Shown here in pieces: positions 11,955 to 16,189 of a DNA stretch of 30,137 nucleotides. This DNA comes from Escherichia coli. GTDB taxonomy: Bacteria > Pseudomonadota > Gammaproteobacteria > Enterobacterales > Enterobacteriaceae. The stretch lies in the NCBI RefSeq assembly GCF_003334355.1, contig NZ_QOWP01000040.1; one strand, given 5' to 3'. Both the position numbers and the translations under genes were made by a program. Numbering within the stretch: position 1 is the first letter of the stretch; the number at the start of each line of letters is the position of its first letter. The notes beneath the pieces were generated by a model. It was not told where the DNA came from. It did not search any database and saw nothing but the letters and a program-made list of their open reading frames with translations.

Positions 11955-13850
11955 ATGTCTGCAACAAAACTGACCCGCCGCGAACAGCGCGCCCAGGCCC
12001 AACATTTTATCGACACCCTGGAAGGCACCGCCTTTCCCAACTCAAAACGCATTTATATCACTGGCACACAACCCGGCGTGCGCGTGCCGATGCGTGAGAT
12101 CCAGCTTAGCCCGACGCTAATTGGCGGCAGCAAAGAACAGCCGCAGTACGAAGAAAACGAAGCGATTCCGGCCTACGACACCTCCGGCCCGTATGGCGAT
12201 CCGCAGATTGCCATTAACGTGCAGCAAGGGCTGGCAAAACTACGCCAGCCATGGATCGATGCGCGCGGCGATACCGAAGAACTTACCGTGCGCAGTTCCG
12301 ATTACACTAAAGCGCGGCTGGCAGATGATGGCCTCGACGAGCTACGTTTTAGCGGCTTATTAACGCCAAAACGCGCCAAAACAGGACGCCGCGTCACCCA
12401 ACTGCACTACGCCCGTCAGGGCATCATCACACCGGAAATGGAATTCATCGCCATCCGCGAGAATATGGGCCGCGAGCGCATCCGTAGCGAAGTTTTACGC
12501 CACCAGCATCCGGGAATGAGCTTTGGCGCACGTCTGCCGGAAAATATCACTGCGGAATTTGTCCGTGATGAAGTTGCTGCCGGACGTGCGATTATCCCGG
12601 CCAACATTAATCATCCGGAATCGGAGCCGATGATTATTGGCCGTAACTTCCTGGTAAAAGTTAACGCCAATATCGGCAACTCAGCGGTCACCTCTTCCAT
12701 CGAAGAAGAAGTGGAAAAGCTGGTATGGTCCACCCGCTGGGGAGCGGATACGGTGATGGATCTCTCCACCGGTCGCTATATTCACGAAACCCGCGAGTGG
12801 ATTTTGCGTAACAGCCCGGTGCCGATCGGTACAGTGCCGATCTACCAAGCGCTGGAGAAGGTTAACGGGATCGCCGAAGATCTTACCTGGGAAGCGTTCC
12901 GCGACACGCTGCTGGAACAGGCCGAGCAAGGTGTGGATTACTTCACTATCCATGCGGGCGTACTGCTGCGCTATGTGCCGATGACCGCGAAACGCCTGAC
13001 CGGTATCGTCTCTCGCGGCGGTTCGATTATGGCGAAATGGTGCCTCTCCCATCATCAGGAAAATTTCCTCTATCAACACTTCCGCGAAATTTGTGAAATC
13101 TGTGCCGCTTATGACGTTTCGCTGTCGCTGGGCGACGGTCTGCGCCCCGGTTCTATTCAGGACGCCAACGATGAAGCGCAGTTTGCCGAGCTGCATACGC
13201 TGGGCGAACTGACCAAAATTGCCTGGGAATATGACGTGCAGGTGATGATTGAAGGCCCAGGCCACGTGCCGATGCAGATGATCCGCCGCAATATGACCGA
13301 GGAGTTAGAGCACTGCCACGAAGCGCCGTTTTACACTCTGGGGCCGCTAACTACCGATATTGCGCCGGGCTATGACCACTTCACGTCGGGGATTGGTGCG
13401 GCGATGATTGGCTGGTTTGGCTGCGCGATGCTCTGTTACGTAACGCCAAAAGAGCATCTGGGTCTGCCCAATAAAGAAGATGTTAAGCAGGGGCTTATCA
13501 CCTATAAGATTGCCGCCCACGCCGCTGACCTGGCGAAAGGGCATCCGGGCGCGCAAATTCGCGATAACGCCATGTCGAAAGCCCGCTTCGAATTTCGCTG
13601 GGAAGACCAGTTTAATCTGGCCCTCGACCCGTTTACCGCCCGCGCTTATCACGATGAAACCCTGCCGCAAGAGTCAGGTAAAGTCGCCCATTTTTGCTCC
13701 ATGTGTGGGCCGAAATTCTGCTCGATGAAAATCAGCCAGGAAGTGCGTGATTACGCCGCCACGCAAACTATTGAAATGGGAATGGCGGATATGTCGGAGA
13801 ACTTCCGTGCCAGAGGCGGAGAAATCTACCTGCGTAAGGAGGAAGCGTGA
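11955..13850 (+). CDS. thiC: Phosphomethylpyrimidine synthase (radical SAM)
   Basis: 631-aa ORF; C-terminal [11 protein letters not shown] Fe-S cluster motif; first gene downstream of the riboswitch. Confidence 0.97.
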
Positions 13851-14485
13851 TGTATCAGCCTGATTTTCCTCCTGTACCTTTTCGTTCAGGACTGTACCCG
13901 GTGGTGGACAGCGTACAGTGGATCGAACGTCTGTTGGATGCAGGCGTACGTACTCTCCAGCTACGCATCAAAGATCGGCGCGATGAAGAGGTGGAAGCCG
14001 ATGTCGTGGCGGCAATTGCGCTGGGCCGCCGCTATAACGCGCGATTGTTTATCAACGATTACTGGCGGCTGGCGATCAAGCATCAGGCGTATGGCGTCCA
14101 TTTGGGGCAGGAAGATTTGCAAGCCACCGATCTCAATGCCATCCGCGCGGCAGGCCTGCGGCTGGGCGTTTCGACACATGACGATATGGAAATCGACGTC
14201 GCGCTGGCAGCACGCCCCTCTTATATCGCGCTGGGACATGTGTTCCCGACGCAAACCAAACAGATGCCTTCTGCACCGCAGGGGCTGGAACAGCTGGCAC
14301 GGCATGTTGAGCGACTGGCGGATTATCCCACCGTGGCGATTGGCGGTATCAGTCTGGCACGCGCGCCTGCGGTGATAGCAACGGGTGTCGGCAGTATCGC
14401 CGTCGTCAGCGCCATTACTCAAGCCGCAGACTGGCGTTTGGCAACGGCACAGTTGCTGGAAATTGCAGGAGTTGGCGATGAATGA
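13850..14485 (+). CDS. thiE: Thiamine-phosphate synthase
   Basis: ATG at 13850 overlaps the thiC stop (TGATG); product [24 protein letters not shown]..., 211 aa. Confidence 0.95.
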
Positions 14486-15233
14486 CCGTGACTTTATGCG
14501 TTATAGCCGCCAAATCCTGCTCGACGATATCGCTCTGGACGGGCAGCAAAAACTGCTCGACAGCCAGGTGCTGATTATCGGTCTGGGCGGGCTGGGTACA
14601 CCTGCTGCGCTGTACCTGGCGGGCGCTGGCGTCGGGACGCTGGTACTGGCAGATGACGACGATGTGCATTTAAGCAATCTGCAACGACAAATCCTCTTTA
14701 CCACTGAAGATATCGATCGCCCGAAATCGCAGGTCAGCCAACAGCGACTGACACAGTTGAATCCCGACATTCAACTGACAGCATTACAACAACGGTTAAC
14801 GGGTGAGGCGTTAAAAGATGCGGTTGCACGGGCCGATGTGGTGCTCGACTGTACCGACAATATGGCGACTCGCCAGGAGATTAATGCCGCCTGCGTGGCA
14901 CTCAACACGCCGCTTATCACCGCCAGCGCGGTCGGATTTGGCGGTCAGTTGATGGTACTGACGCCGCCCTGGGAGCAGGGGTGTTACCGCTGCCTGTGGC
15001 CAGATAACCAGGAGCCAGAACGCAACTGCCGCACGGCGGGCGTGGTTGGCCCGGTGGTCGGGGTTATGGGCACTTTGCAGGCACTGGAAGCCATTAAGTT
15101 ATTAAGCGGTATAGAGACACCTGCGGGAGAACTCCGACTGTTCGACGGTAAATCGAGCCAGTGGCGCAGCCTGGCGTTGCGCCGCGCCAGTGGTTGCCCG
15201 GTATGCGGAGGAAGCAATGCAGATCCTGTTTAA
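14478..15233 (+). CDS. thiF: ThiS adenylyltransferase (E1-like)
   Basis: Internal ATG at 14478 overlapping the thiE stop (ATGAATGA); product [15 protein letters not shown]... with GLGGLG nucleotide-binding motif and CxxC pairs; about 251 aa. Confidence 0.93.
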
Positions 15234-15417
15234 CGATCAAGCGATGCAGTGCGCCGCCGGGCAAACTGTTCACGAACTACTGGAGCAACTCGACCAACGA
15301 CAAGCGGGCGCGGCTCTGGCGATTAATCAGCAAATCGTCCCGCGTGAGCAGTGGGCGCAACATATCGTGCAGGATGGCGACCAGATCCTGCTTTTTCAGG
15401 TTATTGCAGGGGGTTGA
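15217..15417 (+). CDS. thiS: Sulfur-carrier protein ThiS (ubiquitin-like, C-terminal Gly-Gly)
   Basis: 66-aa product [25 protein letters not shown]...LLFQVIAGG; start overlaps the thiF 3' end by 17 nt. Confidence 0.93.
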
Positions 15418-15418
15418 A

Positions 15419-16189
15419 ATGTTACGTATTGCGGACAAAACGTTTGATTCACATCTGTTTACCGGCACAGGGAAATTCGCTTCTTCACAACTGATGGTGG
15501 AGGCGATCCGCGCTTCCGGCAGCCAGCTGGTGACACTGGCGATGAAACGTGTCGACTTGCGCCAGCACAACGACGCTATCCTCGAACCGCTTATCGCGGC
15601 GGGTGTGACCCTGCTGCCAAATACATCCGGGGCGAAAACAGCGGAAGAAGCCATTTTCGCCGCCCATCTGGCTCGTGAAGCGTTAGGCACAAACTGGTTA
15701 AAATTAGAGATTCACCCTGACGCCCGCTGGCTGTTGCCCGATCCCATCGAAACCCTGAAAGCCGCCGAAACGCTGGTACAACAGGGATTTGTCGTGCTGC
15801 CTTACTGCGGGGCCGATCCGGTATTGTGTAAACGTCTGGAAGAAGTCGGCTGTGCAGCGGTGATGCCGCTCGGCGCGCCGATTGGCTCGAATCAGGGACT
15901 GGAAACCCGCGCCATGCTGGAGATTATTATCCAGCAGGCCACAGTGCCGGTGGTTGTCGATGCTGGCATCGGCGTTCCCAGCCATGCCGCGCAGGCGCTG
16001 GAAATGGGGGCCGACGCGGTGTTAGTGAATACGGCGATTGCCGTCGCGGACGATCCCGTCAACATGGCGAAGGCATTTCGTCTGGCGGTAGAAGCAGGCC
16101 TACTGGCACGTCAGTCCGGACCGGGCAGCCGCAGTTATTTTGCTCATGCCACCAGCCCGCTGACCGGATTTCTGGAGGCATCGGCATGA
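15419..16189 (+). CDS. thiG: Thiazole synthase
   Basis: ATG at 15419, 1 nt after the thiS stop; product [20 protein letters not shown]..., 256 aa. The ORF-track N-terminal extension is rejected. Confidence 0.95.

Follow-up and report, generated by a model that had tools for sequence, protein, structure and literature searches.

The thi genes of the analysed window, a 30,137-nucleotide stretch of Escherichia coli DNA, very likely form the canonical thiCEFSGH operon, a single transcription unit controlled by a TPP riboswitch, with five overlapping or abutting internal starts that each have a Shine-Dalgarno (SD) element in front of them and with coupled initiation. The locus is E. coli's ordinary operon for thiamine biosynthesis, which is well annotated. 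Its junctions and starts only confirm an annotation that was already correct, for an operon that was already known, and they bring no new biology. The short, internal starts are the real ones, and the genes are closely spaced and, to judge from their sequence, probably coupled.

Results

Positions 11955-17319 of the window have 100% identity to the E. coli thiCEFSGH operon, which was found in 5420 of 5426 complete genomes. Compared with the RefSeq E. coli operon (e.g. NZ_AP027697.1; K-12 has the same operon), the DNA is 100% identical over 5861 bases; the six genes, their starts, the junction distances and the TPP riboswitch are all alike, and there is no difference between the two. The TPP riboswitch aptamer (THI element; 11774..11874, + strand) lies in the thiC leader, where RefSeq also annotates a riboswitch, and 80 nt separate its end from the thiC ATG. 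It matches the full Rfam covariance model RF00059 (1-105) at 74.8 bits, above the gathering threshold of 54.3. The top-ranked candidate of the terminator scan is a terminator-like, GC-rich hairpin with a 10-pair stem, flanked by an A-run and a T-run (17516..17539, no strand assigned). It sits between convergent genes, with the thiH stop at 17319 and the rpoC stop at 17561, and probably acts as a terminator-like element in both directions.

All six genes lie on the + strand. The first gene, thiC (11955..13850; RefSeq CDS), encodes a 631-aa phosphomethylpyrimidine synthase that scores 1070.3 bits against NCBIfam NF006763 (cutoff 650). The product of thiE (13850..14485; RefSeq CDS) is a 211-aa thiamine phosphate synthase with 421.8 bits against NF002904 (cutoff 231) and with residues 1-210 on profile positions 1-210 of 211. 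ThiF, a 251-aa ThiS adenylyltransferase (14478..15233), reaches 288.6 bits against TIGR02356 (cutoff 275.25), and its residues 1-251 are identical throughout to the ThiF chain of PDB 1ZUD. The 66-aa sulfur-carrier protein ThiS (15217..15417) scores 70.1 bits against TIGR01683 (cutoff 37.45), with residues 4-66 on profile positions 2-64 of 64; its residues 1-66 are identical throughout to ThiS of PDB 1F0Z and 1ZUD. A preliminary description of this DNA had stated that ThiS ends in Gly-Gly, and the translated C-terminus indeed reads ...QVIAGG, the two glycines being the site of adenylation and thiocarboxylation. Thiazole synthase, ThiG (256 aa; 15419..16189; RefSeq CDS), matched no NCBIfam equivalog model in the NCBIfam profile search; it was assigned by Pfam PF05690 (E = 4.8e-112; residues 4-247 on model positions 2-247 of 247) and by PDB ThiG homologues, with alignments that begin at residue 1 (E = 1e-61 to 1e-71). 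The last gene, thiH (16186..17319; RefSeq CDS), encodes a 377-aa 2-iminoacetate synthase with 527.2 bits against TIGR02351 (cutoff 380).

The longest-ORF list begins four of these genes upstream of their annotated ATG, at GTG 14385 for thiF (31 codons too early), GTG 15190 for thiS (9 codons), GTG 15161 for thiG (86 codons) and GTG 13847 for thiE (1 codon). Over-extension of thiF, thiS and thiG had been claimed in the preliminary description and is borne out by these GTG starts; the one-codon extension of thiE was missing from it. Its view that the internal starts are the correct ones is upheld by SD strength, ATG conservation, frame-specific wobble variation, family profiles and the starts of the PDB chains. 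The alignment with characterised proteins that it had suggested as a check gave the same answer, with the ThiF and ThiS PDB chains and the ThiG homologues all beginning at residue 1 of the short form. In every gene, the SD of the annotated ATG surpasses, by duplex energy, those of all other in-frame candidates. An ATG stands at the aligned position in all evaluable loci for thiE (78/78, counting the loci that align through ThiE residue 1), thiF (81/81), thiS (80/80) and thiG (78/78), and in 73 of 74 for thiH; three further thiE loci align from residue 2 and lack a start codon where one would be projected. Up to the annotated ATG, third-position variability keeps to the frame of the upstream gene; beyond it, the frame changes. 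The upstream thiE start, GTG 13847, was rejected, as just 14 of 78 loci have it and its SD spacing is 4 nt versus 7 nt for the ATG.

Use of the longer starts of thiF, thiS and thiG would produce N-terminal extensions and larger gene overlaps. The long ORFs are present in the sequence, and the 1993 description of the operon, which reportedly listed one long 'thiG' at a time when thiS had yet to be recognised, was counted in favor of this reading. However, the SDs of the long starts are poor (-1.5 to -3.4 kcal/mol, versus -6.9 to -10.1 kcal/mol at the annotated starts), and the long starts are missing from most related genomes. Those of E. coli occur in just 2 to 7 loci, and no in-frame upstream start exists at all in 21 of 81 loci for thiF, 12 of 80 for thiS and 19 of 78 for thiG. 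The sequence upstream of the annotated ATGs evolves in the frame of the other gene, the family profiles leave no space for an N-terminal extension, and the crystallised and NMR species are the 251-aa ThiF and the 66-aa ThiS. The average masses predicted for the short forms of ThiS (7311.2 Da) and ThiG (26895.8 Da) also agree with those that Kelleher et al. are said to have found in 1998 (about 7310.7 and 26896.5 Da, respectively). The longer starts are extremely improbable and effectively refuted, and we regard them as artefacts of the ORF track. No thi genes are listed in the supplementary data of the TRAINSPOTTER N-terminomics paper.

Measured from the end of the preceding stop codon, the five downstream ATGs lie within a range from 17 nt before it to 2 nt after it (all on the + strand). 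The thiC stop TGA (13848-13850) and the thiE ATG (13850-13852) share one base in the motif TGATG, at a distance of -1. The thiE stop (14483-14485) and the thiF ATG (14478) are joined in the motif ATGAATGA, an 8-nt overlap (-8), and the thiF stop TAA (15231-15233) and the thiS ATG (15217) form a 17-nt overlap (-17). One spacer base separates the thiS stop TGA (15415-15417) from the thiG ATG at 15419 (+1), and the thiG stop (16187-16189) and the thiH ATG (16186) overlap by 4 nt in ATGA (-4). These distances, read in the sequence, are as the preliminary description gave them and equal those that follow from the CDS coordinates in RefSeq for an E. coli genome with 100% identity.

The compactness of the thi junctions exceeds chance, since all five are at or below +1 nt versus 2 of the 16 other co-directional junctions in the window (Fisher one-sided p = 0.001), and since the geometry is kept in 80 Enterobacteriaceae genomes. 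The comparison set consisted of these 80 related genomes and the window (81 sequences), in which ThiF identity is 73-97% and nearby synonymous sites are close to saturation. The thiC/thiE distance is -1 in 78 of the 81 sequences and the thiS/thiG distance is +1 in 74. At the remaining junctions two spacings predominate: -8 (65 sequences) and -14 (16) for thiE/thiF, -17 (49) and -20 (30) for thiF/thiS, and -4 (61) and -1 (13) for thiG/thiH. The junction geometry and the SD cores are conserved across genera, and the geometry appears to be under selection. Two apparent one-frame fusions, of thiF with thiS (locus L049) and of thiS with thiG (locus L008), were set aside. They stem from single-base length differences in G-runs, the arrangement is normal in other assemblies labelled as the same species (L049) or the same genus (L008), and both are probably sequencing errors.

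At all five junctions the SD of the downstream gene lies inside the upstream coding sequence, and in at least 99% of related loci it pairs with the 16S 3' end at a duplex energy of -6 kcal/mol or below; the SD of thiC itself is weak (-3.3 kcal/mol). The thiE SD, AAGGAGG (13836..13842, + strand; -12.1 kcal/mol), occupies the last thiC codons, 7 nt before the ATG at 13850. Across 78 loci its GAG core is at least 90% conserved and its median duplex energy is -11.8 kcal/mol. Within thiE, the thiF SD AGGAG (14467..14471, +; -6.9 kcal/mol) is the best among six in-frame candidates and belongs to the conserved pattern GC.GGaG..GGCG directly before the ATG. The thiS SD, GGAGGA (15207..15212, +; -9.5 kcal/mol), is made up of the two Gly codons after the CPVC motif of ThiF; 74 of 78 loci use GGA for the first of them, versus 10% background use. 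Similarly, the thiG SD AGGGGG (15408..15413, +; -10.1 kcal/mol) coincides with the C-terminal Gly-Gly codons of ThiS, with either GGG or GGA encoding Gly65 in 73 of 73 loci versus a background of 29%. At both of these SDs the sequence is kept fixed by which synonymous Gly codons are used. Inside thiG, the thiH SD GGAGG (16174..16178, +; -9.3 kcal/mol) serves a start with zero other in-frame candidates upstream, and CTGGAG is at least 90% conserved.

Opening the ribosome footprint costs a median of 12-15 kcal/mol at the internal starts, versus 10.6 kcal/mol at thiC and 16.1 kcal/mol at random internal coding positions. The higher cost relative to thiC speaks for coupling, as does the location of the thiE and thiH SDs inside local stems in this window. 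Compared with random coding positions, however, the internal starts are a little less structured, which gives no indication of hairpins dedicated to inhibition. The local folds of the five junctions were not significantly more stable than those of shuffled sequences (z -1.64 to +0.03). An 8-bp hairpin at thiE is the sole clear SD-masking hairpin and is not conserved outside Escherichia. Given the shuffle z-scores, the poor conservation of the thiE hairpin and the open internal starts, dedicated SD-masking hairpins were rejected as a conserved basis for coupling; a general ribosome-assisted unfolding of the mRNA is possible.

Discussion

The preliminary description had proposed tight translational coupling throughout thiCEFSGH. 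Close spacing stands and, from the geometry, coupling is probable; "tight" and "throughout" are not demonstrated. Coupling is most efficient at distances from -4 to +3, and the enriched overlap classes are -4, -1 and -8 (PMC12548453). The -1, +1 and -4 junctions of the thi operon, where start and stop lie only a few bases apart, fall inside this optimal range; the -8 of thiE/thiF is an enriched overlap class, and the -17 of thiF/thiS is outside the optimum. From this geometry alone we infer, reasonably in our view, that the thi genes would be coupled. Our literature search found no direct coupling experiment on the thi operon. The E. coli pairs of a 2019 study (PMC6728339) resemble the thi pairs in being co-directional, with a start/stop overlap and with the SD inside the upstream gene, and thiG/thiH shares their ATGA (-4) motif. 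In contrast to those pairs, among which the thi pairs are not included, the thi operon has five junctions in a row, including -8 and -17. Four of the five native -4 pairs tested were coupled, and coupling was complete, about 60% or, for bioBF, none (PMC6728339).

In the mechanism that we favor, the TPP riboswitch would gate ribosome entry, and transcription, at thiC, and ribosomes finishing one cistron would promote initiation on the next. Local re-initiation may take place where the spacing is -1, -4 or +1, and probably also where it is -8, and the ribosomes may melt local mRNA structure over the next SD and start. We infer both that translation of each downstream gene would depend on translation upstream and how far. 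According to the re-initiation model of Tian and Salis, the rate drops beyond -10 nt (PMC4538824), so thiF/thiS would be the junction least coupled by re-initiation. Arithmetic from the published parameters gives a re-initiation coefficient of about 0.0044 at -17, compared with a plateau of 0.0072 and 0.022 at -4.

It is decidedly unlikely that the junctions are compact yet functionally independent, with mainly de novo 30S binding at their own strong SDs. Coupling would then not be required, and the overlaps would reflect genome compaction and the easy evolution of NTGA and TGATG motifs. All five internal SDs are strong and could allow independent initiation: they range from -6.9 to -12.1 kcal/mol, are conserved across genera and are fixed by synonymous choice. 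In this window, opening the start regions of thiF and thiS (11.0 and 10.8 kcal/mol) costs no more than opening that of the leading thiC (10.4 kcal/mol) to within a small margin, the abundance of the -4 spacing probably reflects its ease of evolution (review, PMC12548453), and in the experimental study bioBF was uncoupled and another pair only partly coupled. On the other hand, most of the native overlapping E. coli pairs tested there were coupled, and the exact thi distances persist through 80 genomes in which the neighbouring synonymous sites are near-saturated. At the thi junction distances a terminating ribosome would, moreover, cover the next SD and start, so termination and the next initiation would not be fully independent. 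A reading that concerns the thiF/thiS junction in particular, which we consider unlikely, is that its -17 or -20 overlap leaves the two genes uncoupled and is a ribosome-occlusion or de novo initiation device for a ThiS:ThiF ratio other than 1:1, with the -1, +1 and -4 junctions enforcing proportional ThiS, ThiG and ThiH. The thiF/thiS overlap does lie outside the distances at which re-initiation is efficient, and the Gly-Gly codons that form the thiS and thiG SDs are indispensable for function.

Adjacent thi genes encode partners in protein complexes, namely ThiF-ThiS and ThiS-ThiG (PDB 1ZUD, 1TYG) and ThiG-ThiH (Leonardi et al. 2003, listed in PMC3020362). Overlapping gene pairs reportedly tend to encode subunits of heteromeric complexes (PMC10666635), and the physical partnership of adjacent thi products fits this tendency. 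The complexes differ in kind, however, as partner binding is a property of the proteins and not of the junctions.

Conclusions

The value of these results lies in quality control: of the six genes of the operon, four receive a wrong start in longest-ORF calls, and the curated starts are right. Knowledge of thiamine biosynthesis is unchanged by them. With its conserved distances and codon-locked SDs, the thi operon illustrates the spatial coupling of genes with textbook clarity, and with spacings of -1, -4, -8, -17 and +1 in a single mRNA it may serve as a test case for re-initiation versus de novo models.

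Identity of the locus and its gene map

The stretch at window positions 11700-17560 matches several complete E. coli chromosomes at 100% identity. Of the 5426 complete genomes of this species, 5420 carry it at 80% coverage or more. The RefSeq features of NZ_AP027697.1, a genome with identical sequence, were projected onto the entire window and place rsd 5' of the operon, followed by a TPP riboswitch (11774-11874; also found by Rfam at 74.8 bits, where the gathering score is 54.3), thiC (11955-13850), thiE (13850-14485), thiF (14478-15233), thiS (15217-15417), thiG (15419-16189) and thiH (16186-17319), with rpoC convergent at the 3' side. 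ThiC, ThiE, ThiF, ThiS and ThiH each score above the cutoff of an NCBIfam equivalog, ThiG matches the Pfam ThiG family (E = 4.8e-112), and PDB chains 1ZUD and 1F0Z agree at every residue with ThiF and ThiS of the window. This locus and the reference thiCEFSGH operon of E. coli are one and the same. Its gene products, its ThiF-ThiS, ThiS-ThiG and ThiG-ThiH complexes and its riboswitch are all established already, and the correct starts are in the RefSeq annotation.

Two further features lie at the 3' side. Between thiH and rpoC, a GC-rich hairpin of 10 pairs with an A-run on one side and a T-run on the other (17516-17539) resembles a bidirectional intrinsic terminator shared by the two genes. 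The mechanical ORF list also holds an 803-aa ORF antisense to rpoC (17687-20098, plus strand). Since rpoC is the sole RefSeq annotation there, this ORF is most likely non-coding, the shadow of a long gene with biased codon use.

Junction geometry

Direct reading of the sequence and computed distances agree with the preliminary description at all five junctions: thiC/thiE overlap by 1 nt (TGATG), thiE/thiF by 8 nt (ATGAATGA), thiF/thiS by 17 nt and thiG/thiH by 4 nt (ATGA), and thiS/thiG are separated by 1 nt (TGA-A-ATG). ThiS ends in Gly-Gly, as described, with AGG at its C-terminus. Since the ORF starts discussed below also match, every factual statement made there is correct. Tight junctions occur in 5/5 thi pairs versus 2/16 other co-directional annotated neighbor pairs in the window (Fisher one-sided p = 0.001), these two being zraS/zraR (-4) and secE/nusG (+1). 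On the minus strand of the window, zraS/zraR (3435-6133) overlap by 4 nt, secE/nusG are 1 nt apart (29391-29393) and rplK/rplA 3 nt apart (28255-28259); the remaining co-directional pairs outside the thi operon are spaced by 9-412 nt.

A scan with one genome per species yielded 80 Enterobacteriaceae loci with ThiF identity of 73-97%. Among these loci and the window, thiC/thiE distance is -1 in 78 of 81, thiE/thiF is -8 in 65 and -14 in 16, thiF/thiS is -17 in 49 and -20 in 30, thiS/thiG is +1 in 74, and thiG/thiH is -4 in 61 and -1 in 13. These distances are kept despite highly variable third codon positions nearby (0.9-1.35 bits).

Real fusions were rejected in two loci where neighboring genes seem joined in frame, thiF-thiS in Citrobacter amalonaticus AUH_CA_2023_1 (L049, 4200-4520) and thiS-thiG in Kluyvera genomosp. 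3 YDC799 (L008, 4400-4445). Both arise where G-runs serving as Shine-Dalgarno (SD) sequences differ in length by a single base. The usual gene arrangement is seen in other assemblies that share the species label (L049) or genus label (L008), so both are probably homopolymer sequencing errors.

Translation starts

As had been noted, the mechanical ORF list over-extends thiF (GTG 14385, +31 codons), thiS (GTG 15190, +9 codons) and thiG (GTG 15161, +86 codons); the sole omission was thiE, which is also extended there (GTG 13847, +1 codon). Four independent lines of evidence favor the short annotated starts. Among the in-frame candidates of each gene, predicted SD-anti-SD pairing is strongest at the annotated ATG (thiE -12.1, thiF -6.9, thiS -9.5, thiG -10.1 and thiH -9.3 kcal/mol, versus -1.5 to -3.4 kcal/mol for the long starts). 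Among evaluable loci, an ATG aligns with the E. coli start in 78/78 for thiE, 81/81 for thiF, 80/80 for thiS, 78/78 for thiG and 73/74 for thiH. No upstream in-frame start codon of any kind exists in 21/81 (thiF), 12/80 (thiS) and 19/78 (thiG) loci, and the particular long starts of E. coli are found in only 6, 2 and 7 loci, respectively. Variability 5' of each ATG is maximal at the second position of codons read in the extended frame, where the preceding gene has its wobble base, and just past the ATG it moves to the gene's own third position. Comparison with characterized ThiF, ThiS and ThiG proteins gives the same result, as these methionines are also where the family profiles and the solved structures start. 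Predicted masses of the short forms with Met retained are 7311.2 Da for ThiS and 26895.8 Da for ThiG; Kelleher et al. (1998) reportedly measured ~7310.7 and ~26896.5 Da. For thiE, GTG 13847 was rejected in favor of ATG 13850, as the GTG is present in only 14/78 loci and its SD spacing is 4 nt versus 7 nt.

Internal SD sites and RNA structure

The SD of each of the five downstream genes lies within the final codons of the preceding gene, with cores at least 90% conserved. That of thiG (15408-15413) consists of the GGG GGT codons of the ThiS C-terminal diglycine, and that of thiS (15207-15212) of the GGA GGA codons for the diglycine following the ThiF CPVC motif. Among loci L002-L081, the 80 relatives, ThiS Gly65 is encoded by GGG or GGA in 73/73 versus 29% background use, and the ThiF glycine by GGA in 74/78 versus 10%, a contrast that is plain even though binomial p-values for it are overstated by assuming independent species. 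The wobble bases of both Gly-Gly SDs are fixed, which shows that these SDs are under selection; this in turn supports the start assignments and shows that pairing between ribosome and mRNA is important at the junctions.

Local folds at the junctions showed no extra stability against shuffled controls. The thiE SD lies in a perfect 8-bp hairpin in which AGGAGGAA (13837-13844) pairs with UUCCUCCU (13866-13873) in thiE codons 6-8 (Phe-Pro-Pro). Such a hairpin would keep the SD and start codon inaccessible until a ribosome terminating on thiC melts it; it is not kept in the other Enterobacteriaceae genera examined, and its downstream arm is unconserved. For thiH, the SD (GGAGG) and the first base of the ATG are predicted to lie in a stem formed with thiG codons farther upstream (16141-16155 / 16172-16186), and the 91-nt fold is not significant (z = -1.26 versus shuffles). 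Over the full set of loci, the median cost of opening a ribosome footprint is 12-15 kcal/mol at the internal starts, compared with a lower 10.6 for thiC and a slightly higher 16.1 for random internal coding positions. These costs and the non-conserved hairpin point to ordinary structure to be melted by translating ribosomes rather than a dedicated, conserved inhibitory element.

Discussion

Ribosomes would enter the operon at the thiC leader with its TPP riboswitch and a weak SD (-3.3 kcal/mol). thiC is the only gene of the operon lacking an upstream partner, and a conserved TGGAATGaGCT precedes its ATG (11934-11954). The riboswitch is reported to control thiC at two levels, transcription and the initiation of translation (PMC5234074), and the very weak SD is consistent with initiation governed by the riboswitch expression platform.

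The thi junction pattern is one example of a well-described class of spatially coupled genes, and the junctions themselves are already known and offer nothing new. Tight coupling throughout thiCEFSGH, as the preliminary description had it, is still an inference. Coupling is most efficient from -4 to +3, the enriched overlap classes are -4, -1 and -8, and longer overlaps lower it (PMC12548453). In tests of five native E. coli pairs with -4 spacing, four were coupled, one of them at only ~60%, and bioBF was uncoupled (PMC6728339). The re-initiation coefficient of Tian and Salis is 0.022 at -4, has a plateau of 0.0072 and drops by 0.0004 per nt past -10 (PMC4538824). By arithmetic from these parameters it is ~0.0044 at -17, which would rank thiF/thiS lowest and thiG/thiH highest among the five junctions.

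Only two by-products of this analysis are mildly interesting. One is the synonymous-site locking of SDs made from functional Gly-Gly codons. The other is the conserved long thiF/thiS overlap (-17/-20), which, speculatively, might set a non-proportional ThiS:ThiF ratio rather than couple the two genes.
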